This document shows positions 1-23,009 of a stretch of 32,000 nt of DNA, piece by piece. The DNA is from Vulcanisaeta distributa DSM 14429 (lineage in GTDB: Archaea > Thermoproteota > Thermoprotei > Thermoproteales > Thermocladiaceae): the NCBI RefSeq assembly GCF_000148385.1, contig NC_014537.1, positions 120,001 to 152,000 of the forward strand, in the 5' to 3' direction. Both the position numbers and the translations under genes were made by a program. The notes under the pieces were generated by a model. It saw nothing but the letters and a program-made list of their open reading frames with translations. It was not told the origin of the DNA and ran no database searches. Each line of letters opens with the position of its first letter. Within the stretch, counting starts at the first letter, position 1.

Positions 1-1749
1 ATCACCCTGCTTAACGCGGCCCTTAACGCCCTTAGATATTAATGGACTCACAACGGCAATCACATCCTCATAGTGCACATTGGGCCTTATCTTAACAATA
101 CTCATTAAATCAAGCCAACGCCTGATCCTTGGGGTCATGGCCGCTAAACCAATAATGCCCAGAAATAGTGCTGAATAGTATGTCGTGTTTATCAGCAGCC
201 CTATTAACGTGCCTAAATTAAATGGATTTAACTCAGCGTTTTTAATTATCATTAGTGAGTCATTAAGCCAGGTAATGTATGAGCCATTCCACAACGCATA
301 GTAATTAAGCCTATACGGCTTAATACCAATAATCACAATACTAATCACCGTCTCATTACAAGTGCCGCGGCACGTGAGGGACGCCGTAACCCTAAAACTC
401 CTTAACTCATTAATTGCACTTGTGTAATTACCCAAGCCACCGCATGACTCATTAACTATGCCAAGTATCGCACTAACCACCTGCTGTGGCACGGTGGTTC
501 CCTGGTAAATAATTGATGGGTTAAGCACCTGCTCAAGGTCTTGGCAAAAGAGTTCGTGGTTTCTAATAATGCTGTTGATCCAGGACTGTGGGACTATGTT
601 TGTTGGCGTGCCCTGTACCGTTGAGTACGTTATTGAGCAGTTACCCCCTATGGGATTAATGGGCCTTACTAGCACCTGCGATGCGTATGCAATTACCGTA
701 ATATTACCACTACAGGGCGTTGTTACGTTTATGACTGCGTAACCATCATTCACGTTAACCCCAGCATTACCAATGCCATTCCACTCATAATTGAATAAGG
801 CCACTAATGAGTCGCCATTAAATACTGCGATTAACGGTAACCTAATGAACACAGTCCTATTATTAAACCCAGGGCTTATGGCTATTAGGTAATTCACGTT
901 AAACCTCATGAATAGGGCCACCACGCAATTAACCTTGTAAAGTATTGGTTGTATCCTCAACGTGTAAATTGGTAGGGCTATTAAACCCACACCATTGGGT
1001 AGACCAACAACCTCGCTGTATGTAAAACCATAGCCATTAATGCACAGGACCGACGGTACTGACCTACCCAACTCATCAACCACCTCAATATTTATGAAAC
1101 CCACGTTAGTCGGGACAACACTCATCGTGCTAGGCATACTTATTACCGGTGATGAATACGTGGTGTTTATACCCAGGGGTAGCGCAACGCCAAGGATTAG
1201 GTAAATCGCGACTGGGATAGCCACCGTACTCCTAACCCTAGGTATAACAAGGAGGGGTGCCATGTACGGCATGAACAGCCTAAGCACTCCGCCGATGAGC
1301 ACGGCATACTTAGTGAGCCACAACGCAGCAACAAGTGTTGAGAGGACACGAACAACATAATTAATTACCAGAGTTACTAGGTGCTCAATGACATCGATGA
1401 CGAGAATGATCGAGCCGAGGCCCGACCCAGTGACTACATACATTGCGGCCTCGGCTATGGGTAGACCCACGTTAACGACCACCGAAAGGACTGCGTCAGC
1501 CATACCCAATGAGCCTATCAAGCCATTGTAAGCACTCAACAACCCATCGATTGTATTTATCGCAGTGTTGGTTGAGTATAGGCTACTGGGTATTAAGCCG
1601 TAGAAATTAGTGACCAGGGCAAGGGCTATGGCATACCAAACAAGGTCCTCAACATCAACCCTAAACTCCCTACCCCTAATCACGGCATTAAGCGCCCTAA
1701 CCAATAATGAACCAACCATCACAACTACAACGAGAGTCAGACCCAACAT
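1..1749 (-). CDS. large polytopic membrane / surface glycoprotein; N-terminal 583 codons, gene continues past the left window edge
   Basis: Absent from the ORF track because it has no stop in the window. By-eye translation of the reverse frame is open from ATG 1749-1747 down to base 1 (MLGLTLVVVVMVGSLLVRALN...). The first ~200 aa contain several hydrophobic helices, followed by a Cys- and N-x-S/T-rich domain. The architecture resembles the 1444-aa ORF. It shares an LSAYN segment with the neighbouring 134-aa ORF. Confidence 0.65.
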   Translation of the reverse strand, partial: MLGLTLVVVVMVGSLLVRALNAVIRGREFRVDVEDLVWYAIALALVTNFYGLIPSSLYSTNTAINTIDGLLSAYNGLIGSLGMADAVLSVVVNVGLPIAEAAMYVVTGSGLGSIILVIDVIEHLVTLVINYVVRVLSTLVAALWLTKYAVLIGGVLRLFMPYMAPLLVIPRVRSTVAIPVAIYLILGVALPLGINTTYSSPVISMPSTMSVVPTNVGFINIEVVDELGRSVPSVLCINGYGFTYSEVVGLPNGVGLIALPIYTLRIQPILYKVNCVVALFMRFNVNYLIAISPGFNNRTVFIRLPLIAVFNGDSLVALFNYEWNGIGNAGVNVNDGYAVINVTTPCSGNITVIAYASQVLVRPINPIGGNCSITYSTVQGTPTNIVPQSWINSIIRNHELFCQDLEQVLNPSIIYQGTTVPQQVVSAILGIVNESCGGLGNYTSAINELRSFRVTASLTCRGTCNETVISIVIIGIKPYRLNYYALWNGSYITWLNDSLMIIKNAELNPFNLGTLIGLLINTTYYSALFLGIIGLAAMTPRIRRWLDLMSIVKIRPNVHYEDVIAVVSPLISKGVKGRVKQGD

Positions 1750-1755
1750 GCATGG

Positions 1756-2160
1756 TCACGACAACGCAGACCTAATGGCGTAAATTACAGCAAAGAGCAT
1801 AGCATAGAGGATAATGACTATGACATCCGCCTGCGCAATATACACAGCAAGCCTATTGTAGGCACTAAGCACATCGCCAAAGCCACTAACGCTAAGACCC
1901 ACGTTCTGACACCAGGTAGTCTCAAAGCTCCTAGGGTTAATTATCGACTGTATGACCTTATCACTAATCATGGCGCCATAGAAGGGCTGCGAAGCTATTA
2001 CGGCAGCACCACCCACCACAACCACGTAGAGGCCAAGACCCACGGCAACAAACAACGAACCAACACCCCTAAGCCTAGACACGGAAAGACCAAGCCCAAT
2101 CACTATCAACAATGAGGACAGGCCCGGCGTCCACTGGGCCAGGTAAATCATGGGCACCAC
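1756..2160 (-). CDS. small multi-TM membrane protein
   Basis: 134-aa ORF with 3-4 hydrophobic segments. The track start is GTG at 2160; an in-frame ATG at 2151 is an alternative. It ends 6 nt before the next minus-strand start at 1749. Confidence 0.6.
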   Translation of the reverse strand: MVPMIYLAQWTPGLSSLLIVIGLGLSVSRLRGVGSLFVAVGLGLYVVVVGGAAVIASQPFYGAMISDKVIQSIINPRSFETTWCQNVGLSVSGFGDVLSAYNRLAVYIAQADVIVIILYAMLFAVIYAIRSALS

Positions 2161-2243
2161 ATCCTCCGTCGACTCCAGTATTATCGTAGCATTCTCAGTC
2201 TGTACACTCCTAACATCACACCAGGGATACGTGAGGGGGCATG

Positions 2244-3791
2244 CTAATTGCCGCGGCCGCCCCCCTTTATGGGTAGCGTGAGTCTCGTGAGATGCTTAAC
2301 GATTATTTGCTCCTTCCTTTCACTCTTTATCATCCTAAGTTTCTGACATAATACTCTAATTACTTGCACTCTAATATCGTCATATCTCTCAATTAGGCGC
2401 ATTGGTACTACGATCGTCAAATACTTACCACCTTTCTCAGGATAAACGTTTATTTGGCTGACAAACTCATCGCCATAAATACTCTTCAACTTCTCAAGAA
2501 TTTCCTTAACCTCCTTCTCATCTTTGGCGTGGTGTCGTAGTTCAACTGTACCCTCCTTAATCGTTACGCTAAATGCATGATCAGCAATAACAATAATCTG
2601 CATACCTTTTCTAAACTTTGGTTCAAACTCTGCTATCTGCTTTATATTTATCCATGTCTTAACAGCTAAAGCATCAATAACATCCTTTATTATTGATGGC
2701 AGGATACTAATCATTCCCCTAGCAAGCTTAATAGCATGAGAACCATTAAATACCACATTAACCGAATTTCTGTCAGTGCGAGGAACCTTATTCCACGAAA
2801 ATCCAGTACTCTTCAATTTCTCGAGCAATGGCTTCCACATTTTATACTTTTCGGACGACATAACTATTTCTATTACAGGTTTAGCATAGTGACCATTATC
2901 AGCAATAAAAGCGCTTCCATCACCAAGTACGGCGGTAAACAAAATGGCAAGTAGCGCCTCCCTGCTGAGCTTACTAAGCTTTTCAGTGTCCTTTAAGAAG
3001 CCTTTAAGCGATTTATGATCAAGTGACCTTAAGTGCCATGTTACTGTTACATCATACTTATTCACATTAACAGAATGTATATGCATGTGTACCCTGCCAT
3101 AATATATCAACGACCATAACACGGCTTGCCAAGGCTTACTTGTACCCATAACAGGCTTACTCTCATCCACGCTCTCATCCGTCTCTGCGAATCCCACTTT
3201 TAATGGTATAAGTAATTCTCTAATGAACTTCTCATACTCATCTTTACTCATTACTCTCATGAAAATATTGGGTATTTCTATTGTCATGCCTTCAAGGTCC
3301 TTCAACACTAAATGAAGCACTACCCCCTCGGTCTTACTTACATTAAGCAGTATATTCTTACCATAAACACTTAATCCAGACATATTCTCCCAAATAACAA
3401 CCTCTGCCTTACCACCTACTAAATTATCAATGATCTCCTTAACCTCAATACCATTCTCAATCCAGTACTCCCTGAACCTATCAATATAACTAATGAACTC
3501 ATCAAACACGTTAAGAATGCCGTTAACGACATCATCATTATATACGCCCCTTAGTCTCTCATAAACATTCCTCTTCTTCGCTTGCCACTCCATCTTATAT
3601 ATATCAATCCACCACGGCTCCCAAATACGCCACTTAAACATTCTATCAATAGCCTCAGCCAGCAGGCTAACATACCGATTAATTATATCTGAATCGTTAA
3701 CTGTATTACCACAAATATATTTTCTACCGTGTTTAATACCAAAATAGAAGCTATTTCTCTTCAATTTAATGTCAAGGGGCCCCAGGCCCAT
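2244..3791 (-). CDS. hypothetical protein with a LAGLIDADG-like motif (possible homing-endonuclease-derived domain)
   Basis: The track ORF runs to 4130, but its first 113 codons are Gly/Pro-rich read-through of GC-rich structured repeats. I start at ATG 3791 (MGLGPLDIKLK...). The motif LAILFTAVLGDGSAF resembles LAGLIDADG. The gene body is clearly more AT-rich than its neighbours. Confidence 0.6.
   Translation of the reverse strand: MGLGPLDIKLKRNSFYFGIKHGRKYICGNTVNDSDIINRYVSLLAEAIDRMFKWRIWEPWWIDIYKMEWQAKKRNVYERLRGVYNDDVVNGILNVFDEFISYIDRFREYWIENGIEVKEIIDNLVGGKAEVVIWENMSGLSVYGKNILLNVSKTEGVVLHLVLKDLEGMTIEIPNIFMRVMSKDEYEKFIRELLIPLKVGFAETDESVDESKPVMGTSKPWQAVLWSLIYYGRVHMHIHSVNVNKYDVTVTWHLRSLDHKSLKGFLKDTEKLSKLSREALLAILFTAVLGDGSAFIADNGHYAKPVIEIVMSSEKYKMWKPLLEKLKSTGFSWNKVPRTDRNSVNVVFNGSHAIKLARGMISILPSIIKDVIDALAVKTWINIKQIAEFEPKFRKGMQIIVIADHAFSVTIKEGTVELRHHAKDEKEVKEILEKLKSIYGDEFVSQINVYPEKGGKYLTIVVPMRLIERYDDIRVQVIRVLCQKLRMIKSERKEQIIVKHLTRLTLPIKGGGRGN
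2251..2280. repeat. left arm of an imperfect ~30-bp inverted repeat
   Basis: CCGCGGCCGCCCCC(c)tttatGGGTAGCGTG. Its inverted partner is at 5419-5446. Confidence 0.5.
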
Positions 3792-3867
3792 TGCCGCCCC
3801 GCCTACGTTATTATCGATTTCACGCTGCTTAGGTGTCTCAACACCCCCACTCGCTGTGTCCCTAACC

Positions 3868-3978
3868 GCCCCGGCCGCGGGGGCGGTGGAGGATGGCTGG
3901 TTTTGACCCCCACCCAGGCCCACGGGACTGGGGGTTGGGTCCCATGGGGCGGCCCCCTGGGCGGGGGGCTCATTGGAT
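3868..3978 (-). repeat. GC-rich leader repeat, copy E5 (related to the copies at 5449-5507 and 8141-8200)
   Basis: It shares GGGGGCGG..GGTGGA at one end and GGGGnCTCAT at the other with the E1 and E2 copies. An internal imperfect hairpin is gacccccacccag / ctgggggttgggtc. It lies just upstream of the 3791 start. Confidence 0.45.
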
Positions 3979-3996
3979 TGAGGTCTAGTCGTCATC

Positions 3997-4247
3997 CCGA
4001 CCACCTGGGGTCCTACGCCCCGCAGGGCTTTCGTCCCGACAGTGCCTGGTAGGCCTACACGGGACCGACTCAGCCCCTGTCGGCCACCCAGGGTGTCGGG
4101 ACTATAACCCCACGGGGCCATACCACCCACCTAGCCGTGAGCCAAAGTACGGAGAGACAAAGAGGGGTAGGAAGGAAGAAAACAAGCCAGGATGGGTAGG
4201 CGCCCCGTGGGGTAGACCCCACGGGGCGTAGGACCCCAGGTGATCGG
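3997..4247 (-). ncRNA. candidate ~250-nt structured RNA (or structured 5' leader) closed by a 26-bp long-range helix
   Basis: 3997-4022 (ccgaccacctggggtcctacgccccg) is complementary to 4222-4247 (cggggcgtaggaccccaggtgatcgg). The single non-Watson-Crick position is U-G on the minus strand but C-A on the plus strand. Internal helices include GUCCCGACA/UGUCGGGAC and a perfect 12-bp hairpin at 4201-4228. A TATA-like box at 4288-4295 sits upstream in the minus sense. Confidence 0.45.
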
Positions 4248-4287
4248 CCCCACCCCCACGGGGCCCACTACCTCCTATCGTCACACC

Positions 4288-4295
4288 CTTAAATA
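4288..4295 (-). promoter_or_regulatory. TATA-like box (sense TATTTAAG) upstream of the structured RNA
   Basis: Same box family as the gene promoters in this window. The predicted start near 4267 is the beginning of the GC-rich structured segment. Confidence 0.4.
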
Positions 4296-4494
4296 CCCAT
4301 TGCTCCACGGCATTCGATAAAACAATCAAGCATTTGTTTAGTAATTCCCTGGGTTTTGTGTATTATTTTGCTAGGGTGTTGGACAATTCATTAATAACTT
4401 GTTTCGCGTATTAGTAAAACATTATATCACTTATTCCATTTATGAGTTGCATTTTATTCTTTTTAGCCTTGGATTTGCTAAATATTATTGCTTT

Positions 4495-4724
4495 CCCCTG
4501 CCCATCCTCTCCATCCCTCCCGCCGGCCCTGTGGGTTTGGCTCTTGGTGATCCCAAGCCCCCATCGCCATCCCACGGGCGGCACCCCCAGCCTTCGGACT
4601 CCCGGGGCTCATGGAGATCCCAAGCCCCCACAGCCCCCCACACACGCCGGGAGCCCCCCTACAAGGGGAGCCACCGGCCCGCAAGGGAGAATGGGGGAGG
4701 AGGGGGTGGGAGGATGGGCAGGGG
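4495..4724 (-). ncRNA. GC-rich structured element immediately 3' of the 232-aa gene
   Basis: Terminal 15-bp helix: 4495-4509 cccctgcccatcctc pairs with 4710-4724 gaggatgggcagggg. Internal 15-nt direct repeat gatcccaagccccca at 4549-4563 and 4616-4630. It contains the ATGAGCCCC motif (minus sense) shared with E1, E2 and E5. An abrupt 165-bp AT-rich tract follows at 4331-4494. Confidence 0.4.
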
Positions 4725-5432: not shown

Positions 5433-5446
5433 GGGGGCGGCCGCGG
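5419..5446. repeat. right arm of an imperfect ~30-bp inverted repeat
   Basis: The reverse complement reads CCGCGGCCGCCCCCgtGGGTAGtGCGTG. The 14-nt core is identical to 2251-2264, and the GGGTAG..CGTG tail is also shared. Confidence 0.5.
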
Positions 5447-5448
5447 TG

Positions 5449-5507
5449 GATCATCCCCAACCCTCCGCCCGGGCTGTTCCCGGGTGGTTTGGTTGGGGAC
5501 TCATTGC
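5449..5507 (-). repeat. GC-rich hairpin leader repeat, copy E1
   Basis: Hairpin CCCCAACC-CT-CCGCCCGGG-ctgtt-CCCGGGTGG-TTT-GGTTGGGG (5455-5498). About 80% identical to 8141-8200. It lies between a TATA box (5531-5538) and the 232-aa gene start. Confidence 0.6.
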
Positions 5508-5538: not shown

Positions 5539-5594
5539 GCGGCCTTAGCGCTTGGGGCGATGCCTTTATTAACCCCGGCCAAGCCTTAGTCAGT

Positions 5595-5698
5595 GGCTGG
5601 GCGGGGGTGGTCCGCCCGGGTCAGCACGTCGTCTCTTCTTCAGAGTTCTGCTCGTGCCGTGAACATCAGGCCCGGGCTAACCCACCCCCAACCCAGCC
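5595..5698 (-). ncRNA. C/D box sRNA (core 5621-5669) embedded in a ~22-bp GC clamp
   Basis: The minus strand reads C box cUGAUGU, 12 nt UCACGGCACGAG, D' CAGA, 4 nt, C' UGAAGA, 12 nt AGAGACGACGUG, D box CUGA. This is the canonical archaeal 12-nt guide spacing. The flanks 5595-5620 and 5671-5698 pair with each other (GGCTGGG/CCCAGCC, GGGGGTGG/CCACCCCC, GCCCGGG/CCCGGGC). The D' guide is complementary to CUCGUGCCGUGA, which I recall as a conserved archaeal 16S rRNA segment. Confidence 0.6.
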
Positions 5699-5780
5699 CC
5701 CACCCAAGGCCAGGCCGGGGGGTGGTCAACCCGGGCTTGGCGGCGATGCATTTATTAAGCCCCAAACCAACTGAGCCCTA

Positions 5781-5878
5781 GGGGCCGGGGTGGGTCGGCC
5801 CGGGAAACAGCTGCGAAGCCGCTCATCAACGACAGCTTGTGCCCCATCATCAAGCCCCCGGGCTTCATCCCCACCCCA
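5781..5878 (-). ncRNA. second C/D-box-like unit (core 5807-5853) with atypical CUGU D and D' boxes, in a GC clamp
   Basis: The minus strand reads uUGAUGA, 11 nt UGGGGCACAAG, CUGU, 3 nt, UGAUGA, 12 nt GCGGCUUCGCAG, CUGU. The flanking stem is GGGGTGGG..GCCCGGG / CCCGGGC..CCCCACCCC. It is a tandem paralogue of the 5595-5698 unit, including the shared flank cttggNgcgatgcMtttattaa. Confidence 0.4.
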
Positions 5879-5908
5879 AGCCAACCCCACCCAGTTGGTT
5901 GGGGCGGG

Positions 5909-7285
5909 TTAGCCCGGGTTTTGTTGCTTGGTGCATTGGATTCCGTAGTTCGTTAATTCAGCGCAGTACCGCCTAAACCTCCTGTCGAATAGCACGACGT
6001 CGATAACCTCATTGGGCATTAACCTGCCTATTGCCTGTACGGTCTTCATGACCACTAGGTCGGTGCTCCTTAAGCCCCTCGCCTCAAGCCTCCTCATTAC
6101 ATTGCTTGGTAGTAGGGGGAGTGTGAGGAGTACGGCCCTCCTATAGCAGTTGAGCCTAACACCCTCGGCGAACCTACCGAAGAACCTCAGGACGAGGTTC
6201 CTCCTGCATACATCCTCCCTCCTAACCTCATCCTCATAAACCGCATTCTCGATCAAGACCTCCTTACTACTCGTAGTGAAAATCACCGTCAAAGCACCAT
6301 CACTCAACAAGTCATTGACTTGCCTAGCGACTTCACTCTTAAGTCTCTCTACATTCTCTGTGGTCATGACCACACTCCCTAACCTAGCCCTAACTAATTG
6401 GCTAGGCTCTACCCTAACAACAGGTATTGAGGTTAGTATTGATGGTGGTAGGGTTGCCGACATCAAGAGCACCCTCTTATTGCTCGGCAACTCCAACCCC
6501 TCAAACCTAACACCCACCAGTGCGTCGCTGTCCTGGTCGTAGTATGTAATTGATGACTCAATGAATGCCACCAGGTCATCCATACTAACTATTTCATTGA
6601 CCTCACCATCCATCGCCATTGCAGGTAAGAGCTCACTCAAAACACCCCTAACAAGCTCCGCGCTCCTAACATCCAAGTCCTCAACCCCAAGCCTACCGAG
6701 GAGTAGCTCAACACCCCTCCTGGAAAGGCTGACGAGCTTTGGAATAACTGCATTATGCGCTTCATCAATGATTACACCGCCTACTTTCCCAGCGTACTTC
6801 CCCAGCCTGCTGTAGTTCATAAGCACGACGATGTCATCATACCTACCCAGTAACTCCCTGATCAGCGCCTCCTGGACGTTGTACGGGCATAACCGGCCCT
6901 GCTCAGCCAAATCCCTAACCTCGGCGTAGTCCGAGGCGTTGATTAACGCCTTGACCAGGGGAACCGGCTTATTGAGTTGGCAGAACCCACAGGGCCTCCT
7001 AACAACAAAGTCACTGTGCCTAAAGCCCCTGGTACAAAGCCTCTCCCTACCAGTCGATAGGAAGTGCCTAACGCCGAACTCACCCAAGGCCCTACTCGCC
7101 TGGGCCAGGGCGTTGATTAGGCTTGATGCCCAGACCCACTTACCGCCCAACTGCCTTATTACGTATGATGCCACGTAGCTCTTACCCCAACCGGTTGGGG
7201 CTTGAAGACCAACAATACCCCTCTCCCTAAGTAGAGCCAGTAATTTATTCGCCACATCCAATTGATCACTCCTCAGGTTAGCCAT
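5909..7285 (-). CDS. XPD/Rad3/DinG-family superfamily-2 helicase with a 4Fe-4S Cys cluster (compact, 458 aa)
   Basis: Motif I LQAPTGWGKS and motif II VIIDEAHN. Four Cys arranged C-x16-C-x2-C-x~33-CPY between motifs I and II, as in XPD FeS domains. Also LLMSATLPP, FAEGVRL...LPLLP and QAIGRL...LFDRRF. Confidence 0.8.
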   Translation of the reverse strand: MANLRSDQLDVANKLLALLRERGIVGLQAPTGWGKSYVASYVIRQLGGKWVWASSLINALAQASRALGEFGVRHFLSTGRERLCTRGFRHSDFVVRRPCGFCQLNKPVPLVKALINASDYAEVRDLAEQGRLCPYNVQEALIRELLGRYDDIVVLMNYSRLGKYAGKVGGVIIDEAHNAVIPKLVSLSRRGVELLLGRLGVEDLDVRSAELVRGVLSELLPAMAMDGEVNEIVSMDDLVAFIESSITYYDQDSDALVGVRFEGLELPSNKRVLLMSATLPPSILTSIPVVRVEPSQLVRARLGSVVMTTENVERLKSEVARQVNDLLSDGALTVIFTTSSKEVLIENAVYEDEVRREDVCRRNLVLRFFGRFAEGVRLNCYRRAVLLTLPLLPSNVMRRLEARGLRSTDLVVMKTVQAIGRLMPNEVIDVVLFDRRFRRYCAELTNYGIQCTKQQNPG

Positions 7286-7289: not shown

Positions 7290-7820
7290 TCACCTCCTCA
7301 CCAGTGCCAGGGCTGCGATTATGATCAGTGGTATGAGCCACGGGGCCAGTTCAGAGGCCACGGCAACAACCACCGCAATGCCAACCGCAACGCCGAGGAG
7401 GAGTAGCACAGCCCTCCTGGCGCCCTCCCTCCTACGCCTAGCCTCAACCTCATTGATCTTGTCAATGATCAACCACCTAAGCCTAGCCTCAACAGCCCCG
7501 ACCTCACGCCTAACAACATCAACGACGCTGGGTTGATTAGATTGACTACTAATCAACCGCCTAAGCTCGTTGATTTCCTCGCCAAGCTCATCAAGCCTCC
7601 TAACGACGTCATTAATACTGCCCGACCCAACCTCGTTAAGCAACTGCCTCCTCAAATCCTCAATCTCCCTAACGAGGATCTTAACAACCTCTTTCCTAAC
7701 ACTCTCCAAGCTCCTGGACCTCATTGAGTCTAGGTAATCAAGCAACTCCTCCCTAAACTCCCCAAGCCTCCTATCAACATACTCCCTAAGCCTCATGAAC
7801 TCTTCATCACCCTCCATCAA
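7290..7820 (-). CDS. coiled-coil protein with a C-terminal TM anchor
   Basis: 176-aa ORF with E/R/L-rich heptad-like sequence, then LLLLGVAVGIAVVVAVASELAPWLIPLIIIAALAL. It overlaps the upstream ORF by 14 nt. Confidence 0.6.
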   Translation of the reverse strand: MMEGDEEFMRLREYVDRRLGEFREELLDYLDSMRSRSLESVRKEVVKILVREIEDLRRQLLNEVGSGSINDVVRRLDELGEEINELRRLISSQSNQPSVVDVVRREVGAVEARLRWLIIDKINEVEARRRREGARRAVLLLLGVAVGIAVVVAVASELAPWLIPLIIIAALALVRR

Positions 7821-8073
7821 TAATCACCTTCCTGATTATCATCTTGCCTTTACTCTTGTGGACAATTTCGTAACCCTCCTCGTAAAGTATCGCAGGCAAA
7901 TACTGGCTTAGTGCAATCATTACGCTGGTAATGATGTTTTCCGGCAAATACCTACTCATGAACCGCCTAACCCTTGCAGTGGTTATTTTGTACGTCTTGC
8001 CACCATCATTACGTCGAATATTCACCCTATATTTCTCAAGCTCCTCATCCAGAAATTTCTTGAACAACCTCAC
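7807..8073 (-). CDS. small basic hypothetical protein
   Basis: 88-aa ORF with a GTG start. It is preceded by a ~130-nt GC-rich leader containing repeat E2. Confidence 0.45.
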   Translation of the reverse strand: MRLFKKFLDEELEKYRVNIRRNDGGKTYKITTARVRRFMSRYLPENIITSVMIALSQYLPAILYEEGYEIVHKSKGKMIIRKVIIDGG

Positions 8074-8140
8074 CGCGATACCTGCGTACTTTGGTTCATA
8101 ATCATGCCTGCGGGCCTGCGGTGGGCCTGGGGCACCCTTG

Positions 8141-8200
8141 AATCACCCCCAACCCTCCACCCGGGCCAAGCCCAGGTGGTTTGGTCAGGGGCTCATCACC
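8141..8200 (-). repeat. GC-rich hairpin leader repeat, copy E2
   Basis: aatcacccccaaccctccacccgggccaagcccaggtggtttggtcaggggctcatcacc aligns with 5449-5507. In the minus sense it begins GGUGAUGAGCCCCUGACC, which contains C-box-like and D-box-like strings. Confidence 0.6.
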
Positions 8201-8224
8201 TCCACTAATAATAGAATAATTTGA

Positions 8225-8232
8225 ATTTAAGG
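8225..8232 (-). promoter_or_regulatory. TATA box (sense CTTAAATT, preceded by CCCCGC)
   Basis: Located ~150 nt upstream of the GTG at 8073. It predicts a transcript starting at the 5' edge of repeat E2. Confidence 0.4.
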
Positions 8233-8237
8233 CGGGG

Positions 8238-8747
8238 TTAGTAGAGCTTGACCCTGCATGGTATTGACCCTCTATACCTATTGGCTAGGTCCCTATCCGC
8301 GTTGTAGCCCGAGGCCCTCAGCATTGCGTGGATTGCATATGACGCCTTCGGCCTTCCCATCCTCACCCAATTCCTGGCCACGATATTTAGTACTCCGTGT
8401 AAGTAAGCAATGTTCCTAATAATGCCCTCGGCACCCACAGCCTTAAACGGCGTTATGTGGGGGTCGGCGTTGACGACTTTGAAGGCATACCTCGGAATCC
8501 CAACTCTCCCCAGGAGGTGCGTTACCAGTGCCATGTAGTGGCTTGGGTACGCGGTCAAGGGTTTAATGCCCTGCCTAATTAAGTCTGTGAGTCCATGTAA
8601 GTCCTCCACACTAATGACTGCATGTTTAATGCTACTTACGGCAATTGCACAGTCATCCATGTCAACGTCAGCAACGCCAACCACGGCCTTACCGCAGAAT
8701 AACAACTCCCTAGGCTCTATGTAGAAGGCTAGGGCCTCCCAACGCAT
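8238..8747 (-). CDS. hypothetical protein
   Basis: 169-aa ORF with an ATG start. It overlaps the upstream ATPase gene by 19 nt, which suggests translational coupling. Confidence 0.6.
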   Translation of the reverse strand: MRWEALAFYIEPRELLFCGKAVVGVADVDMDDCAIAVSSIKHAVISVEDLHGLTDLIRQGIKPLTAYPSHYMALVTHLLGRVGIPRYAFKVVNADPHITPFKAVGAEGIIRNIAYLHGVLNIVARNWVRMGRPKASYAIHAMLRASGYNADRDLANRYRGSIPCRVKLY

Positions 8748-10066
8748 TCCCAGACACCCTCAAGCCTATCCTTCATCTTCGCATCAGTGAAGCCAGACTC
8801 CCTAATCACGTCGAGCCTAACTCCATGAGCCTCGGCGCATTTCCTAAGCGTTGTTGTGCCTGTCTTTGGCTTTATTGTTGGGTCTACCTCGACGGTTAGT
8901 AGGTTGTATGGCTCCCTGTGCTCGTTCCTCATTTGCCTGTTGGTTATGTGTATGTGCATGACGGCGGTCAGTGGGTTCTCCCAGTGTGCCGGTGGTATGG
9001 CGCTCCAGGTCTTCTCTGCATTGTAGTACACGTCCCTACCATAGTGGGCCTTGAAGCCAGGCTCCCTGAAGATTATGTTCTCGGGGTTGAAGTACAGTGT
9101 TGGGAACTCAATGAATAGCTTATTCATGCTTATGAACTCCCTGGGTATGTCGAATGGGCTTTGGGTGATTAGGGCGAAGTACCTCCCGTAGTTCCTACCA
9201 ACCCTGACACTGGTTGTCAACGTCGACTCACCAAGCCTGAAGTATAGGTGGGCCTCATCAATCACAAGGATCAGGTCCCTGGCCTGCATGGAGTTCAGTA
9301 TAGCCAGGAGCGACAGCACGTAGAACCAACGCTGGACCGGCGAGAACCAGCTTAGGTCAATGCCTATGGATTTACCCCTCAACCCACCATTGATTAAGCG
9401 ATTAATCAGTGGGTGGGTCCTACCAAAGAGCCAGTGGTTGAAGTAGGTGAGCCTCCTAATCAAGCCCCTGGCGCTGTTAACCTCGTCCTCCCTAGCCAAG
9501 GCACCGCCACTGACCAAGTCATTGAGGTGCTTAATCAACCCACTAATCGATACCTCACCAACAGCCCTGCCCCTATCGGAAACGGCCTGCGGTATAGGTT
9601 GATTGCCCAATTGATCGTCTGCCTGGCCAGTTAATTCGCCGTAAGCCCTCATGAACATGTACTCCATCGCAGGGGTCATTACGTAGGGCAGTCTCGGGAA
9701 CCTCATGGTGAGGACCTCCTCAATCACATCCAAAGCCTCAATATCACTCAGGTAATCCAGCGGGTTTAGTGGGTACGGCGCGTAGTAGTCGGTGTAGCCC
9801 TCGTAGGTGCCGGCGGCGTCGAAGACCACGACCGCGTAGTCGCAGGGCACGCTCATCAGGGCATTCTTAATGAGCGTGGTCTTCCCAGTCCCAATTGAGC
9901 CGAAGATCAGTGCATGCGTCTCATCAAGGACCATGAAGTGGAATAGGTGCCTAGCCGGGTCATTAATCATGTCCCTAAGGCTCGGCCTGCACGGGTCATC
10001 CCGACCAGCAGAACCCACTTGACCAACCTGCTGGTTAATCCGCCCTTGTCTCCTTATGAACATCAC
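8729..10066 (-). CDS. HerA/VirB4/TraG-type (DUF87-like) P-loop NTPase, soluble
   Basis: Walker A IFGSIGTGKTT, Walker B LILVIDEAHLYF, and ALITQSP. No TM segment. An ATG at 10063 is an alternative start. Confidence 0.75.
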   Translation of the reverse strand: MMFIRRQGRINQQVGQVGSAGRDDPCRPSLRDMINDPARHLFHFMVLDETHALIFGSIGTGKTTLIKNALMSVPCDYAVVVFDAAGTYEGYTDYYAPYPLNPLDYLSDIEALDVIEEVLTMRFPRLPYVMTPAMEYMFMRAYGELTGQADDQLGNQPIPQAVSDRGRAVGEVSISGLIKHLNDLVSGGALAREDEVNSARGLIRRLTYFNHWLFGRTHPLINRLINGGLRGKSIGIDLSWFSPVQRWFYVLSLLAILNSMQARDLILVIDEAHLYFRLGESTLTTSVRVGRNYGRYFALITQSPFDIPREFISMNKLFIEFPTLYFNPENIIFREPGFKAHYGRDVYYNAEKTWSAIPPAHWENPLTAVMHIHITNRQMRNEHREPYNLLTVEVDPTIKPKTGTTTLRKCAEAHGVRLDVIRESGFTDAKMKDRLEGVWECVGRP

Positions 10067-10910
10067 TACTCCAGCCTAACCGCCTTATAAGGGTTAGTGC
10101 CTTTGTCGTTGCTCTTACGGTCATGTCGCTTGGGTTGAAAACCACATATCCCATCGACAGTGCCTTTATCACGGCTTCCTGACCAACTAAGTCCCCCAGC
10201 GCCTTCAACGTCGCCACGCCGCCCAAGTCCTTGATTAGGACCTCGACGGCATTAACCACGTCATTGCTGACCCAAGCCTCGGTGGGCTCAGCGAGGCTGA
10301 ACTGCCTCGCCGGAACCTCAACAAACCTCCTACTAACCCCAATGACCTCAACCCTACTGTTGAATTCCGTGGTCTCCCTAAGCTCGTCAATCCTCGGGAT
10401 CCTAACCAACCTCCTAATGACTTCATCGAAAATGAACACCCTATTAACATCAAAGACGCTTGAGTGCACCGCAATGTCTATGCCCAGGGCCTTTAACTGA
10501 GCCAGTGCATCAGTGAGCCTAGGCCATAAATCCGAGTAGAACTCCACATTAACCCTCAATGAGGATGCAAGGGCCAAGCCAATTATTGTACTGATGGGCT
10601 CGATGATCGATATCGGGGCTGAGTGGAGTATGGCCTTGAGCTCATCCGTGTTGAACTCACTGGTGAATTTAACGCTTGCTGGCATTGCGAATCCACAGTC
10701 CTCAAAGACCTGGCTCAACGACTCTAGGTGAGTCGAGTCGCAGTTGATGTTTAACTCACGGAACACCCTATTGATTAGGGCCTTACCCAAGGCATTGAGC
10801 CTCGCATCAGGCACGCCACTAAGAGCCCTGGCATCCCCGGTGAACCTAAAGGTCACCCCAGTCGTTATCCCACCATAATCAAGCCTACCGAGGACAAGCC
10901 TAAGCATCAT
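10035..10910 (-). CDS. hypothetical protein, possible C-terminal winged-helix
   Basis: 291-aa ORF. It begins 14 nt after the stop of the 1444-aa gene and overlaps the downstream ATPase gene by 32 nt. Confidence 0.6.
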   Translation of the reverse strand: MMLRLVLGRLDYGGITTGVTFRFTGDARALSGVPDARLNALGKALINRVFRELNINCDSTHLESLSQVFEDCGFAMPASVKFTSEFNTDELKAILHSAPISIIEPISTIIGLALASSLRVNVEFYSDLWPRLTDALAQLKALGIDIAVHSSVFDVNRVFIFDEVIRRLVRIPRIDELRETTEFNSRVEVIGVSRRFVEVPARQFSLAEPTEAWVSNDVVNAVEVLIKDLGGVATLKALGDLVGQEAVIKALSMGYVVFNPSDMTVRATTKALTLIRRLGWSSDVHKETRAD

Positions 10911-10924
10911 TAAAGGTTACTCAA

Positions 10925-13900
10925 TCACTTATTAGGCTGGTCACCCACGTACCTCCCCAAGCCATCAATGAGGGCCTCAGCAACCACCACGGCCTCCATC
11001 AAGTTCACCACCTTAAGCCCAAGTTCCGCATCCCTAAACTCATTAATTATCCTGCCCAGTGAGTCCCTTAGGGCGTTTATTGAGGACCTCAACAGCTGTA
11101 TCCTGAGGTCGACGGCGCCGGTGTGGGAGAGGGCGTTGAGTGCGTTGTTGACGGCGCCCAAGGCACTCCCATAAATCGCCAACCTCCTCCTCAACTCACC
11201 AACCTCCCCACTCAGCTCCTCAGCCCCACCAAGACCCCCACTACCCACTAAATCACTTAACTTAGCCTCCAAGTCCCTAAGCCTACCCCTCAGCTCATCA
11301 ACCTCACTACTCAACCTACTCGCCAAGCCCCTCAGCATTACCTCAGCCTCGCCAACCGCGTAGTCCCTTACCTGACTCAGCACTTCAATCGCCAGCCTCG
11401 GTGGCATGTACCTGGCCAGCAAGTGCCTAAGCCCATCATCACTGATTGAGTCCACTCCAATAAACCCACCCCTAACGTGCTTAGCCTGGTCGCTACTCAG
11501 GACGAGACCCCACAGGTCTTTATGGAACTCCCTAAAGACGTCACTGTTCGGCTTAGCCATCGACGCCTTGATTACGAGGTCCCTGGCCACACCCTCGACA
11601 GACTCCATGTCAACAAACCCATCCTCGTGAAGCGCCCTCAAAGCCCTTGCCAAGGCCTTCAGCTCGCCTGGCCCAATCCTAAGCCTACCATACTCCTCAC
11701 TGAATGACTGCCACTCAATGGCCCTGTTAACGTCGACACCCAACTCACTGAGTAGCTCCAGTAGGGCAACCAGCGGCTGCTTGCGGATTGAGTCCGCGTA
11801 GTCGATTAGGCCTATTACCGAAGCCCTACCGCCAACGCTCAACCTATTAATCACACCATCCCTAGCGGTCACCGCAAGGTGCAACCTAACGACGGAGTCT
11901 ACGAGGAGGTCACTCCTCACAATCGAGGCAATCCTGGGGAATACCTCACTAAATGACTTATCACCAACCAACGCATCAACACCATGCCTAAGCAACCCAC
12001 CATACTCCCCCATAAACCTCCCAAACTCCATAAACCCCCTGACCTGCTCCCTAACCCACCCTCCATAATTAACATTCCTGAGGAACTCACCAATAGCCAT
12101 TGGTAGGGCCTCCTTAACGGCGGCCCCCCAAGCCCTCGACTCAAGGGCCTCCCTGAACCTAGCCCCAACGAATGGGCTTAGGGCCTTCGTGAGCTCCCTA
12201 ACACTGAGCCTGTTAATGATCATCAAATCCTCACTACTTGCACCACCGCTCAACGCCTTGTTAATGCGCTCGGTGTGCCTAACCCACCAGCTATTAATCA
12301 CCTCAATTGCCTTGGCATCATCCCTAAACGCCTCAAGGAGTGGCTTGAGGACGTCACGGCTTAGGGCCACGCCACCCCTAAGGTTATGGAGGGCGTCAAT
12401 GATTAGCTTAACATCGCCCCTGGCTAACTCCCTAACCTGCCTATCCCTCATGTGCTTGGACATTAACTCCCTAGCCCTGTTGCCCAGGGCTTTGTCTAGG
12501 AGCTCCCTGGCCCTACCATGCTCAACACCCATTAATTGGCTTAGCTCAACAAGCCTATGGAGTTCACCGTTAATTAGGGCATTGATCACACCCTTAACCT
12601 CACTAAGCCTCCTAATGCCAGTTAATGCCTTGCCGTGGAGCTCCCTAACGTACGGAGTTAGGGCGATGGCCAACAACCTAGCCGAGTCAAGCCTTGAGTT
12701 CTTAACGACCAAGCCCTTACCCCCACCAAGCCAGTACTTACTAACTAAAGACTCCATCAAACCCCTAAGCCTCGGGTCTTTGACAGCCTTAACCTCAAAG
12801 GGCCTTGGCATACTCAAGGATGCAAAGGCGTCCTCCACAGCCCTCTTGATGCCAATCCTCCTGGCAACAGCCCTAGTCACCAGGTGGGCCGGCAGGTCAT
12901 CCCCAGCCCCACCACCGCGGCTGTAAACCCTCCTATCCAGTACGGCACCACCCCTAAACCTAAGCCCAACAACCTCATGAAGCCTACCCCTCATCCCAGC
13001 CTCCCTCCATATTGGGTACTCCCCAACAAACGAAGCCACACCCGCGCCAACCCTGGCCAGCCCAGCCAAGGCACGCCTATGCCGCTGCCCATAAACCACC
13101 GCCTTACCCCTAAGCATGCTCTCCACATCCTCCATCGCGGCACTCACCGGCCTAGCCAGTGGGCTTGGGTCCCAGGGGCTCGGTAGGTGGCGGCTCAGCC
13201 TACGCCAGGCTGGGTGGTTAGGCCTAGAACCCCTCAACGCACTGACCGCCTTAGCGAATTCATGGTGTATAACCATCAACGGCCCAACAACCCCACCAAG
13301 CCTCCCACCTCTACGCATCCTCAATGCGACGCCCTCCCTAAGCCCCCTAACCCTCGAAGCCACTGACGACCTAACCCTCCTAAAAAGCCTACCAAGGACT
13401 CTGCTAACGCCAGCAACCCTTAGGTAGAGTATTAGGGATAGGTCCATGACCACGTTGCTCAGTACCGACCATGCTGGGCTTAGTGGTGTTGGGAGGTTGG
13501 CGATCCACATTGCCGCATCCAATAAGCCGAGTATTGCGACGGCTTCAGCGAGCCACTTGGGTATGAAGTAGCCGACACCGAGTAGCAAGCCGTTGAAGTA
13601 TGACCAGCCGGTGAGTAGTCTTTGGGAGCCAACCACCATGGAGTTTATGACCCAGGTGGTGCTCGGCGTCAAGCCTATTGGGTCCGTGCCGAACCATGGG
13701 TTGTTTATGTTGCCGATTATCGTTATTACCCCCGGCACCGTCACCGTCTCATTGGAGTGATTGATACATGTTACCGTGATCTCCACCTGGCTATACCCAA
13801 CCGGCTCCGGGTTTGGAAGTGCCAGGCTGAGGTTCCTACCCATTCCCGTGATCTCCCTGCCGATGGTTACCTCCTCATTGATCTTACTGACTAGGTCCCT

Positions 13901-15256
13901 TAGCTCACTCTCCTCATCGTTGATGCTCACCGTTCTGTAGAGTGTGCTGTTCAGCACCGAGTATTGGCATGTCGTTGAGTTTCCGACCCTGGTTGGCACG
14001 TTGATTAACGCATCGCCCGCGAAGTACCAAAGCGTTGCAGACGCCACCCCTGGAAAGCACTCCCCATGCGTCACGCCTGTCCTTGGGTTCGTCACGTTTA
14101 TGCACCGCATTGGTGGTACGTTGATTGTGAAGTTTATGGCTGCGGTGTTATTCCCATTAAGCACTGAGTACTTGCTTGGCGAATCAAGCCACTGCCAGGC
14201 GCCGGTGTAGAGGGTTGAGCCGTTTAGCGTTGCAGTTACTACGTTGAATGGTGGGTTGCCGAACTCAATGACCTCCGCGTAGGTGGCGTTACTGCTTAGG
14301 TAAGCCGCTGAGTCGCATGGCTCCGCAGTGCTTTGGTTGCCTGCGTAGGTTAGGAGTAGGCAGTCATGGCCTGGGTTTACCAGTAACCACAGGAATGTTG
14401 TGTTGGTTATCTCCGGAGTGCCGAAGGCATTAATTGGAGTCACAGACCCAGTGAATGCGGTGAAGCCACTCACTGGGTACTCAGTGAGTGCCACAGACCT
14501 GCCAATGACCGTGTAATTCACCCCATAGAGCACCCCACCGACCAAGTACGGGTACGGGCTGCCTAGGATCAAGAAGCCCCTGACCACGGCGTTAGGTGCG
14601 TTTTGGGTGAGCCAATTCATTAGGGCCGTGGTCTCATTCATTAATTGATTTTTCGAGGCAATCATCGCGTCTTTAGCCGCGATCGTTGTTATGAAGAGTA
14701 TGGTTAAGGTGACGATGAACAAAGCCGCGCCAGCCGCCCTAGTCCTATCCATGACCATCAAGGCCGCGGCGATGCCGATGACCAATGGGGCGATTGCGTA
14801 GCTGAACCAGGCCAGGTAGGCGATGGTGTGTAGCACAGCCGTCATAACCTGGGCGACATGCATCACTGCAAAGATTACGTCGGCGATTGGGTCGATGATG
14901 AAGCCAAGGCCCTGGATCACCGTGAACCCCTGAAGCGGGATTGCACCAATGCCGAGGGTGCTTATTACTGCTACCACATTGAGTACCGTCATGCCCACAG
15001 CCCAGGCAAGGCCTGCGTAGGCACTCGAGTAGTAGACCAGGGACCAATCACCAACCAAGCCCTCCACCTCACGGTAGAGGATTAAGTATGTCGGTGAGCC
15101 GGGGGGTGCAATGCCGAGTAATGTGGGTAGTGCATAGGCTAGGATTAAGGCAGTGCCGGCAGCAATGAACCTCCTAACCCCAACACCACCCCTAACCACC
15201 CCGTAAATCATTACCACCAAGCCCTCAATAAGTAATGCGTAGCCGAGTGGATCCAT
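10925..15256 (-). CDS. giant membrane protein: N-terminal polytopic domain, glycosylated ectodomain, further TM helices, then an ~850-aa helical / coiled-coil cytoplasmic domain
   Basis: 1444-aa ORF (ATG at 15256; the track uses TTG at 15259). About 6 TM helices in the first 200 aa. More than 12 N-x-S/T sequons between aa ~240 and 520. More TM helices near aa 560-620, then Arg/Leu/Glu-rich helical sequence. A TATA box lies 21 nt upstream. Confidence 0.8.
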   Translation of the reverse strand: MDPLGYALLIEGLVVMIYGVVRGGVGVRRFIAAGTALILAYALPTLLGIAPPGSPTYLILYREVEGLVGDWSLVYYSSAYAGLAWAVGMTVLNVVAVISTLGIGAIPLQGFTVIQGLGFIIDPIADVIFAVMHVAQVMTAVLHTIAYLAWFSYAIAPLVIGIAAALMVMDRTRAAGAALFIVTLTILFITTIAAKDAMIASKNQLMNETTALMNWLTQNAPNAVVRGFLILGSPYPYLVGGVLYGVNYTVIGRSVALTEYPVSGFTAFTGSVTPINAFGTPEITNTTFLWLLVNPGHDCLLLTYAGNQSTAEPCDSAAYLSSNATYAEVIEFGNPPFNVVTATLNGSTLYTGAWQWLDSPSKYSVLNGNNTAAINFTINVPPMRCINVTNPRTGVTHGECFPGVASATLWYFAGDALINVPTRVGNSTTCQYSVLNSTLYRTVSINDEESELRDLVSKINEEVTIGREITGMGRNLSLALPNPEPVGYSQVEITVTCINHSNETVTVPGVITIIGNINNPWFGTDPIGLTPSTTWVINSMVVGSQRLLTGWSYFNGLLLGVGYFIPKWLAEAVAILGLLDAAMWIANLPTPLSPAWSVLSNVVMDLSLILYLRVAGVSRVLGRLFRRVRSSVASRVRGLREGVALRMRRGGRLGGVVGPLMVIHHEFAKAVSALRGSRPNHPAWRRLSRHLPSPWDPSPLARPVSAAMEDVESMLRGKAVVYGQRHRRALAGLARVGAGVASFVGEYPIWREAGMRGRLHEVVGLRFRGGAVLDRRVYSRGGGAGDDLPAHLVTRAVARRIGIKRAVEDAFASLSMPRPFEVKAVKDPRLRGLMESLVSKYWLGGGKGLVVKNSRLDSARLLAIALTPYVRELHGKALTGIRRLSEVKGVINALINGELHRLVELSQLMGVEHGRARELLDKALGNRARELMSKHMRDRQVRELARGDVKLIIDALHNLRGGVALSRDVLKPLLEAFRDDAKAIEVINSWWVRHTERINKALSGGASSEDLMIINRLSVRELTKALSPFVGARFREALESRAWGAAVKEALPMAIGEFLRNVNYGGWVREQVRGFMEFGRFMGEYGGLLRHGVDALVGDKSFSEVFPRIASIVRSDLLVDSVVRLHLAVTARDGVINRLSVGGRASVIGLIDYADSIRKQPLVALLELLSELGVDVNRAIEWQSFSEEYGRLRIGPGELKALARALRALHEDGFVDMESVEGVARDLVIKASMAKPNSDVFREFHKDLWGLVLSSDQAKHVRGGFIGVDSISDDGLRHLLARYMPPRLAIEVLSQVRDYAVGEAEVMLRGLASRLSSEVDELRGRLRDLEAKLSDLVGSGGLGGAEELSGEVGELRRRLAIYGSALGAVNNALNALSHTGAVDLRIQLLRSSINALRDSLGRIINEFRDAELGLKVVNLMEAVVVAEALIDGLGRYVGDQPNK

Positions 15257-15276
15257 CAATTAATGAGGCAAGGCAA

Positions 15277-15284
15277 TTAATAAG
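15277..15284 (-). promoter_or_regulatory. TATA box (sense CTTATTAA) of the 1444-aa gene
   Basis: 21 nt from ATG 15256. Confidence 0.5.
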
Positions 15285-15321
15285 GCAACCAATGAAGGGA
15301 AACCACAGACAAGAAACAAAC

Positions 15322-18532: not shown

Positions 18533-18552
18533 CAATTTGATCGCCAACAGCC

Positions 18553-18560
18553 CTTAAAAG
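18553..18560 (-). promoter_or_regulatory. TATA box inside the palindrome CAGCCC-TTAAAAG-GGGCTG
   Basis: 21 nt from ATG 18532. The 6-bp flanking inverted repeat spans 18548-18566. Confidence 0.5.
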
Positions 18561-18567
18561 GGGCTGG

Positions 18568-19442: not shown

Positions 19443-19462
19443 CAGTAGGGATTAATGATTAA

Positions 19463-20567: not shown

Positions 20568-20590
20568 TAATTAATAATCATATTTTAGCA

Positions 20591-23004: not shown

Positions 23005-23009
23005 GCGGA

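Follow-up and report, generated by a model that had tools for sequence, protein, structure and literature searches.

Candidate box C/D guide-RNA units in a conserved hairpin scaffold with K-turn-like motifs behind a helicase gene of Vulcanisaeta distributa

A stretch of 32,000 nucleotides from the archaeon Vulcanisaeta distributa DSM 14429 (contig NC_014537.1, positions 120,001 to 152,000; hereafter the window) was analyzed, and its minus strand was found to carry two modules in tandem, each of about 187 nt, 3′ of a gene encoding an XPD/Rad3-like helicase. Each module carries a box C/D core at the tip of a long GC-rich hairpin. It is probable that these are two genuine box C/D guide-RNA genes, held in a conserved hairpin scaffold with two kink-turns (K-turns) and transcribed with the helicase operon. 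Coordinates given below for the window refer to features of the minus strand unless otherwise indicated.

The core of unit 1 (5668–5621) consists of the C box UGAUGU (5668–5663), the D′ guide UCACGGCACGAG (5662–5651), the D′ box CAGA (5650–5647) followed by the spacer ACUC, the C′ box UGAAGA (5642–5637), the D guide AGAGACGACGUG (5636–5625) and the D box CUGA (5624–5621). The core of unit 2 (5852–5807) opens with the C box UGAUGA (5852–5847) and the 11-nt guide UGGGGCACAAG, and continues with the D′ box CUGU (5835–5832), the spacer CGU, a C′ box that is again UGAUGA (5828–5823), the D guide GCGGCUUCGCAG (5822–5811) and a second CUGU as the D box (5810–5807). The order C, D′, C′, D and the spacing of the boxes, as read on the minus strand in a preliminary description of this DNA, therefore stand. 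Guide, loop and guide measure 12, 4 and 12 nt in unit 1 and 11, 3 and 12 nt in unit 2, and the same spacing is found in all homologous modules. When both strands of the window were scanned for the four boxes, units 1 and 2 were the only loci with three or fewer mismatches, the mean for first-order Markov random sequences with the same dinucleotide statistics being 0.14 loci at that threshold and 0.01 at two or fewer. This result, combined with the conservation of the units in relatives, rules out an origin by chance. Matches to C/D-box families of Rfam were obtained below threshold and all on the minus strand, with sR9 (18.1 bits, threshold 36), sR42, snoPyro_CD and sR2. Other types of RNA were discarded: matches to microRNAs, seen when Rfam was searched in E-value mode, merely reflected the GC-rich hairpins, no pseudouridylation pocket was present to sustain an H/ACA-like hairpin, and the window contains no tRNA.

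Homologous modules were collected from relatives and from hot-spring metagenomes, giving 38 in total, every one of them directly 3′ of the same XPD-like helicase gene. Genomic loci with modules behind an orthologous helicase are L033, L035, L038 (A and B), L051 (A and B), L067 (A and B), L161 (A and B) and L162, and all helicase-orthologue loci that were retrieved have one or two modules right after the helicase. In the window, the stop codon TAA of the helicase gene (5911–5909) sits within the first arm of module 2, in keeping with the placement of the units in the 3′ region of that gene by the preliminary description. A scan of metagenomes with a pattern built on the 3′ arm, which left the 5′ arm outside the pattern, returned 26 matches, of which 25 are modules behind the same helicase. 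In the 20 unique metagenome variants the 5′ arm is about 100% identical, the adjoining helicase coding columns are 30–70% identical, and the cores are mosaic. Further copies flanked by clamps, for which a search had been proposed, were found behind orthologous helicases; the rest of the window had none, and neither did the related loci, which cover about 170 kb. Within the window the G-rich arm motif is confined to the region of the modules. Since every copy found occupies the same syntenic place, the earlier suggestion of a dispersed repeat family that captured sRNA (small RNA) modules is not upheld. Two Vulcanisaeta loci were among the matches listed in a genome-wide search with the arm pattern, which was dominated by a repeat, GGCCGACCCACCCCCGGCCCCTCCCTTCCAGGGAGGGG..., from Sphingomonas and others (L041–L120) that has 20 nt in common with the Vulcanisaeta 3′ arm; this repeat looks like a repetitive extragenic palindromic element unrelated to the modules. 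Neither the module nor the helicase nor the 16S motif described below was found in IMG/VR, and the flank pattern GGCGATGCNTTTATTAA gave only scattered, single, chance-like matches in viral contigs. The negative result in IMG/VR gives no sign of a viral origin.

The guide pair of unit 1, CACGGCACGAG / GACGACGU, is present in four loci, namely unit 1 of the window, L038B, L051B and L161A. It is kept in L038 although the helicase there is only 45% identical, and in L161 it occupies the first position, on the other arm type. More generally, the guide cores can be grouped into a small number of recurring families whose distribution differs by strain and position and is mosaic: L174 and L175, for instance, have a D′ guide in common, and L175 and L169 a D guide. 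The alignments show a near-invariant scaffold in which the cores appear as exchangeable cassettes that recombine their D′ and D halves and change position. An ordinary C/D sRNA with no clamp was found in the same lineage (L165, 132–180), which indicates that the clamp is not a general feature of the sRNAs of these organisms. In Vulcanisaeta sp. JCM 14467 the locus of helicase and modules occurs twice on one contig (L051, 3985–4349, minus strand; L038/L039, 7392–7768, plus strand), the cluster of L051 being paralogous. In both copies the module with the 16S guide is second, and the guides in first position differ (AUCUUGGGGUUA / GUCCCGUAGGCU versus CGUAUCCUAGCG / GGAUUAGAGCCG). A C/D-like match at 2273–2319 of the minus strand of L067 (UGAUGA...CUGA...CUGU), surrounded by short GC inverted repeats, has no homologue in other loci and its fold does not enclose the core, so that it probably arose by chance.

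With the C/D core held unpaired, core-spanning hairpins of about 40 bp per module were predicted. That of module 1 (5720–5573) comprises about 41 bp (33 G-C, 4 A-U and 4 G-U) and that of module 2 (5904–5760) also about 41 bp, its outer stem pairing CCCCAACCAACUG (5904–5892) with CAGUUGGUUUGGGG (5773–5760); in both, the C/D core lies at the tip. The long GC clamps of the preliminary description are therefore real, but the length of about 20 bp assigned to them was too short. Below the core follow a CCCGGG helix of 7–9 bp, which is the terminal stem of the C/D motif, a 6×3 loop, an 8-bp helix, further helices and the sequence UUAAUAA. The internal loops of the predicted hairpins are of the 6×3, 4×3, 1×1 and 2×2 types, together with single bulges. 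No bulge-helix-bulge geometry is among them, so that excision and circularization by the splicing endonuclease, a fate envisaged earlier, is unsupported.

The region 5540–5930 folded with −213.7 kcal/mol (z = −5.7) as the minus strand and with −188.6 kcal/mol (z = −3.4) as the plus strand. In 18 modules the hairpins amount to 716 bp, made up of 538 G-C, 82 A-U and 96 G-U pairs, and A·C 1×1 mismatches number only 6; the sense fold is more stable than the antisense fold in 16 of these 18 modules. The count of 96 G-U pairs against 6 A·C mismatches identifies the box-bearing strand as the folding strand, an asymmetry that selection on the helix at the level of double-stranded DNA or of the other strand would not yield. 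By the same figures a function of the plus strand, which had been left open at first, is disfavoured. Compensatory double changes were observed at 9 of the 32 consensus pairs of the arm alignment, including three pairs of the outermost stem that adjoin UUAAUAA.

The middle of the hairpin can pair in more than one way, segment b combining either with segment c in a local hairpin or with segment g in the long hairpin. In addition, a segment a upstream of the hairpin (CCCGGGCUGACC) resembles the 3′ arm and, as a mimic of that arm, can pair with the G-rich arm in its place, generating an alternative upstream hairpin, B, to the long hairpin, A. Hairpin B was the one chosen by RNAalifold on a plain MAFFT alignment. 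In module 1, segment a is GCCCGGGUUGACC (5724–5736), a mimic of the 3′ arm that retains the dinucleotide GA; in module 2 it is CCCGGGCUAACC (5907–5918), which overlaps the last helicase codons and the stop codon and has AA at that place. The GA of segment a is retained in all modules except module 2 of the window and L161A.

Directly 3′ of the hairpin, the sequence TTAATAA is invariant in every module found, and pairing of its initial bases with UUGAC, at the hairpin's 5′ end, is possible. The 3′ flank is TTAATAAATGCATCGCC (5742–5758) in module 2 and TTAATAAAGGCATCGCC (5556–5572) in module 1, and the window contains exactly two copies of GGCGATGCMTTTATTAA, where 0.13 would be expected. A shared flank had been reported and is present in both units, but its identity is interrupted by an indel of 1 nt (cttggggcgatgcctttattaa versus cttggcggcgatgcatttattaa); that clamp and flank together form a conserved repeat scaffold is borne out across the homologous modules. 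The possibility that TTAATAAA serves as the promoter of the next module was discarded, as its distance to UGACC varies (22, 29, 35 and 47 nt), which makes a fixed start site unlikely. No consistent B-recognition element (BRE) was found beside TTAATAA on either strand in the module alignments.

The 6×3 loop of module 2 has the make-up of a K-turn. It reads 5′ GGGGUGGG-GAU-GA-A-GCCCGGGGG 3′ opposite 5′ UUCCCGGGC-C-GA-CCCACCCC 3′: the bulged strand GAUGAA (5864–5869) is preceded by the C-stem strand GGGGUGGG (5877–5870) and followed by the helix strand GCCCGGGGG (5863–5855), and the non-bulged strand CGA (5795–5797) lies between the helix strand UUCCCGGGC (5806–5798) and the C-stem strand CCCACCCC (5794–5787). 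A bulge of 3 nt, tandem G·A/A·G pairs and a Watson–Crick C-stem on the outer side are all present, and the loop would in effect be a nested C/D-like pair, AUGAAG/CCGA, to which L7Ae may bind. The GA/GA signature was found in about 31 of 33 modules, positions L1–L3 and the 3b·3n pair (A·C, G·U or U·G) being variable. In module 1 the corresponding position has GUUA (5681–5678) opposite GGA (5613–5611), so that the GA of the 5′ strand is gone; in L035 it is the GA of the 3′ strand that is missing.

The C/D pair of unit 1 is K-turn-competent by sequence, with CUGA and a 7-bp helix GCCCGGG/CCCGGGC, and unit 1 has every sequence feature of a C/D sRNA, while unit 2 falls short in K-turn competence. 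Folding of a K-turn should fail once the adenine at position 1n is lost. In unit 2, and likewise in L033 and L067A, both D and D′ are CUGU and this adenine is absent, so that the C/D K-turns of unit 2 are probably defective. The concern raised in the preliminary description, that CUGU would disrupt the K-turn, is thus a legitimate one: the critical adenine of the D box is missing and CUGU is fixed at that box in three V. distributa-like genomes. In orthologous cores from more distant relatives the box is UUGA and the GA is kept, which indicates that CUGU arose secondarily and became fixed in the clade of V. distributa. At the D′ box, CUGU or CUGC is widespread across the guide family of unit 2, and archaeal sRNAs often have degenerate D′ boxes (PMC6009581). 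The intact motifs of the two modules are complementary, unit 1 having the C/D motif with no outer K-turn and unit 2 the outer K-turn with no intact C/D motif. Unit 2 may accordingly be decaying, or its RNA may depend on the outer K-turn, which is intact.

The targets of the guides were sought by comparing the 33 guides of all modules with the 16S, 23S, 5S and spacer sequences of Haloarcula, with shuffled guides as a control. The D′ guide of unit 1 is complementary at 12 of 12 positions to CUCGUGCCGUGA of the archaeal small-subunit (SSU) rRNA consensus of Rfam (RF01959, about positions 1004–1015), where the surrounding consensus reads ...CAGcuCGugccGUGAgg..., and at 11 of 12 positions to the 16S rRNA of Haloarcula, with the mismatch at a covarying hairpin position; 1.3% of the shuffled guides scored as well in the Haloarcula comparison. 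The 16S complementarity proposed earlier for this guide was in this way confirmed against the consensus, and the guide is kept in three further Vulcanisaeta loci. In V. distributa the target stretch is predicted to be CUCGUGCCGUG, and the D′+5 rule predicts the U of CUCGU as the 2′-O-methylated base of 16S rRNA, which we take to be about U1073 in E. coli numbering. A separate observation concerns the D′ guide GAACCUGGCUCA (L162 7484–7495; also L174, L175 and L177), which forms 12 consecutive pairs (9 Watson–Crick and 3 G-U) with UGAGCUGGGUUU, a universally conserved sequence of domain V of 23S rRNA; 9% of shuffled guides equal this pairing with Haloarcula 23S rRNA.

Combined, these observations suggest how the modules might work. 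The array would be transcribed with the helicase mRNA or as a read-through of it. At a growth temperature of about 85–90 °C the long hairpin would bring the C and D boxes together, L7Ae would bind the K-turns, and Nop5 and fibrillarin would then assemble, the flanks being trimmed to ends protected by protein. Such a route would resemble one that Tripp and colleagues reportedly described in 2017, in which archaeal C/D sRNAs are co-transcribed with neighbouring genes and their maturation depends on the K-turn. The D′ guide of unit 1 would direct 2′-O-methylation of the marked U in CUCGU*GCCGUGA of 16S rRNA, in the region of helices 34 and 35, and unit 2 would persist only as an RNA bound at its outer K-turn, or be decaying. 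As for the DNA itself, cassette exchange could draw on the ample homology supplied by the arm mimic and by the palindromic CCCGGG that flanks the core on either side.

Several points weigh against two functional guide-RNA genes. No Rfam family reached its gathering score anywhere in the window, so that the Rfam comparison spoke for the units through its weak minus-strand matches and failed them at threshold; this is weak evidence against membership, since the C/D families of Rfam are guide-specific. The 16S match of unit 1 is to the archaeal consensus and to Haloarcula, not to the 16S rRNA of the host. All other guides, including the D guide of unit 1, had no significant target in the 16S, 23S or 5S rRNA of Haloarcula, which served as a proxy, and the four guides of the window, compared with the window itself, gave only self-antisense sites and chance-level matches. 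A target of the unit 1 D guide directly 5′ of the D′ target in 16S rRNA was also considered and rejected, as CACGTCGTCAGCTCGTGCCGTG had no match in 185,579 genomes. The RNA strand, its ends and its size are all deduced from the DNA. Hairpins A and B exclude each other, and both are conserved. With the adenine missing from D and D′ of unit 2 and the outer K-turn missing from unit 1, neither architecture is intact in both copies. Finally, the conservation of the arms goes far beyond what base pairing needs, and this excess, together with a TTAATAA for which no explanation at the RNA level was found, leaves room for a role at the level of DNA or of protein binding.

Other explanations of the modules were weighed in the light of these points. 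The inverted repeats could be the termini of a non-autonomous transposon, that is, a mobile element resembling a miniature inverted-repeat transposable element (MITE), which carries or mimics a C/D sRNA and owes its pairing and its differences between strains to transposition or recombination. Elements of Pyrobaculum calidifontis combine near-consensus C and D boxes, degenerate C′ and D′ boxes, variable guides and conserved imperfect inverted repeats (PMC6009581), a combination that is also present here; moreover, the cores swap position and partner arms between strains, and the palindromic CCCGGG at both sides of the core is at once an inverted and a direct repeat. We nevertheless regard such a mobile element as unlikely, because all 38 modules share one syntenic place 3′ of the same helicase, with none elsewhere in the window, in the related loci or in IMG/VR, and because the excess of 96 G-U pairs over 6 A·C mismatches and the K-turn signature point to selection on single-stranded RNA. 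Another view is that the hairpins act in cis on the mRNA, as a stabilizer or terminator of the helicase 3′ end or as an L7Ae-responsive switch between hairpins A and B, with the C/D cores as passengers or as recruiters of L7Ae. The position of the helicase stop codon inside segment a agrees with it, as do the two exclusive, K-turn-capable folds that are both conserved, and at least three genes of the same cluster are preceded by element X, described below, a related GC hairpin flanked by AUGAG/UGAU. Regulation of mRNAs by L7Ae through K-turns has also been reported (PMC5539422). A stabilizer, however, has no need of four canonical boxes, an exact 12-nt spacing and a conserved 16S guide, and the guide families recur across lineages. 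Hairpin-dependent termination is, to our knowledge, not established in archaea, and on balance an action in cis appears quite unlikely.

A guide array like those of the tandem interspaced guide RNA (TIGR)-Tas systems, in which variable dual guides would steer a Nop-type or cluster protein to DNA or RNA handled by the helicase and a transfer machinery, finds support in the variability and mosaic nature of guides held in an invariant scaffold, in the lack of an rRNA target for most of them in the Haloarcula proxy, and in the position of the modules beside an XPD-like helicase in a cluster resembling type IV secretion system (T4SS) and Ted loci. It is very unlikely all the same: the boxes are of the canonical snoRNA-type K-turn and not the CCA/UG of tigRNAs, a locus has 1–2 units and not 5–15, neither Pfam nor a PDB sequence search detected a Nop-domain neighbour, one guide clearly matches 16S rRNA, and the guides belong to a few recurring families and do not form an open-ended repertoire of spacers. 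A product of the plus strand, for which TTTATTAA would be the TATA box and which would yield hairpin RNAs antisense to the C/D units, draws on the location of TTTATTAA 24–26 nt upstream of the inner clamp on that strand and on the 39% of antisense reads given for the MITE-like sRNA loci of P. calidifontis (PMC6009581). On the plus strand, though, the 96 G-U pairs turn into C·A mismatches and the fold is weaker in 16 of 18 modules, the box and K-turn motifs are readable on the minus strand only, and neither strand shows a consistent BRE ahead of the box. Since the helix runs as far as TTAATAA, a start site 23 nt downstream would lie within the hairpin and cut it, which weakens the plus-strand TATA reading that had been put forward; we see hardly any prospect for it. 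Least credible is a site that acts as a hairpin in single-stranded DNA, like oriT or attC, during a T4SS-like transfer. It would accommodate the extreme conservation of the arms, the invariant TTAATAA and the DNA-transfer context, and the strand-specific folding signal also fits single-stranded DNA. The tandem G·A signatures of a K-turn and a complete set of C/D boxes are motifs of RNA, however, a conserved guide complementary to 16S rRNA would have no role at such a site, and the Ted system is proposed to import DNA with no dedicated oriT (PMC9905601).

The helicase gene (5909–7285), upstream of the modules, encodes a protein of 458 amino acids of the XPD/Rad3-like superfamily 2, which matched PDB 3crv with E = 0.004 and whose homologues carry the Pfam domains DEAD_2 and Helicase_C_2; relatives are found in V. 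distributa, V. moutnovskia and Vulcanisaeta sp. JCM 14467. Its same-strand neighbours encode a multi-pass membrane protein of 1444 amino acids, a TrwB/VirD4-like ATPase of 445 amino acids, a HerA/VirB4-like ATPase of 701 amino acids, ParA and a T2SSE ATPase. The cluster, at about 7290–23016, resembles a T4SS/Ted-like locus or a conjugative element that has integrated. For most of its small proteins Pfam gave no match, and no Nop-domain protein was found among the neighbours with Pfam (to E = 10) or with a PDB sequence search. By predicted gene composition the cluster resembles the T4SS-derived Ted DNA-transfer loci of Thermoproteales (PMC9905601). The G+C content is 43–46% in the blocks 1–4700, 15000–16200 and 19000–21000 and 51–57% elsewhere in the window, a difference that could stem from a mosaic make-up of the DNA around the cluster or from its horizontal acquisition.

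At least three genes of the cluster carry in their 5′ leaders a further conserved and structured element, here called element X. In the window it lies at 5448–5505 and 8137–8197, and the apparent third partial module at 5440–5500 is in fact this element. In relatives it was located in L033 (5074 and 7648), L035 (7575), L038 (5878, 7816 and 8743), L051 (3930, minus strand), L067 (2538 and 5318), L162 (7663) and L164–L188. It has the form RAUGAG-YCCCC...CCCGGG-loop-CCCGGG...GGGG-RUGAUY, lies about 25 nt past a TATA-like box and adjoins a Shine-Dalgarno-like GGAGG; its 32 unique variants show compensatory changes at four pairs. That it is a conserved open reading frame was rejected, a stop being reached after 3–17 codons. 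Element X could form a K-turn-like GA·G/U·GA junction or a plain helix with a 2×1 loop.

How archaeal C/D sRNAs are made, gain new guides and move is an open matter in the field. Should the scaffold of about 150 nt be confirmed as RNA, it would represent a natural "guide-cassette holder", a candidate device for the biogenesis or stabilization of guide RNAs near 90 °C and a concrete system for guide turnover, and it would connect the TIGR-Tas arrays with the MITE-like sRNA elements found in Pyrobaculum. The CUGU variants offer a natural test of whether an adjacent K-turn rescues a defective C/D motif. A more far-reaching idea, which we hold to be decidedly improbable, is that the cassettes are not ordinary guides for ribosome modification but the guide-RNA module of the T4SS/Ted-like cluster, with a fixed scaffold of two K-turns offering strain-specific, recombining pairs of 12-nt guides. 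These would steer L7Ae/Nop5-type proteins, or an unrecognized cluster protein acting together with the helicase, to targets other than rRNA, such as incoming or resident DNA or RNA. The module would then stand beside the TIGR stem-loop arrays as their archaeal counterpart, built on K-turns.

Compared with the archaeal box C/D sRNAs that act with L7Ae, Nop5 and fibrillarin (sR9, sR42 and snoPyro_CD among them), the two units are alike in box order, in guides of 11–12 nt within a core of about 48 nt, in a 16S-complementary guide with a predicted D′+5 target, in D′ boxes that are often degenerate and in lying where a protein gene ends, with the stop codon overlapped by the element. Ordinary archaeal sRNAs measure about 50–60 nt and have at most a few terminal base pairs, whereas here a hairpin of about 41 bp surrounds the core, accompanied by a second K-turn-like loop, an upstream arm mimic and a downstream invariant UUAAUAA; unit 2 departs further by having CUGU for CUGA at D and D′, and the Rfam scores are below gathering. 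With the K-turns bound by L7Ae outside sRNAs, the outer loop shares the 3-nt bulge, the tandem G·A/A·G pairs and the combination of a Watson–Crick C-stem with a non-canonical stem. Two stacked K-turns in one hairpin are also known from the eukaryotic U3 snoRNA (B/C and C′/D), to which the modules have no homology; they have no A or A′ boxes, and the outer 3b·3n pair of their putative L7Ae site is A·C, G·U or U·G.

The TIGR-Tas arrays (Faure et al. 2025, PMC12045711) likewise consist of tandem stem-loops with two variable guides between box C-like and D-like motifs in a conserved scaffold. They use CCA/UG boxes and the Nop-domain protein Tas, with neither L7Ae nor K-turn, have 5–15 units beside the tas gene and target DNA (PMC12045711). 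The modules, unlike these arrays, have the canonical K-turn boxes UGAUGA/CUGA, 1–2 units, at least one guide with a predicted rRNA target and no detectable Tas-like gene; as no Nop-domain protein is among the neighbours and the box motifs differ, membership of the TIGR-Tas systems was rejected and the parallel is a conceptual one. The nearest precedent is provided by the MITE-like C/D sRNA elements in P. calidifontis, also a member of the Thermoproteales (Lui et al. 2018, PMC6009581). As they are described there, these elements have the same anatomy, a C/D core between imperfect inverted repeats, and are alike in variable guides, modular rearrangement of guides and possible antisense transcription; no K-turn is described within their repeats. 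They number about 15 copies in one species, dispersed over non-syntenic regions that are poor in genes (PMC6009581). The modules of Vulcanisaeta share the anatomy of a C/D-like core with conserved imperfect inverted repeats but not the dispersal, all 38 copies standing behind the same helicase: they occupy one syntenic site, in 1–2 tandem copies, throughout the genus and in metagenomes.

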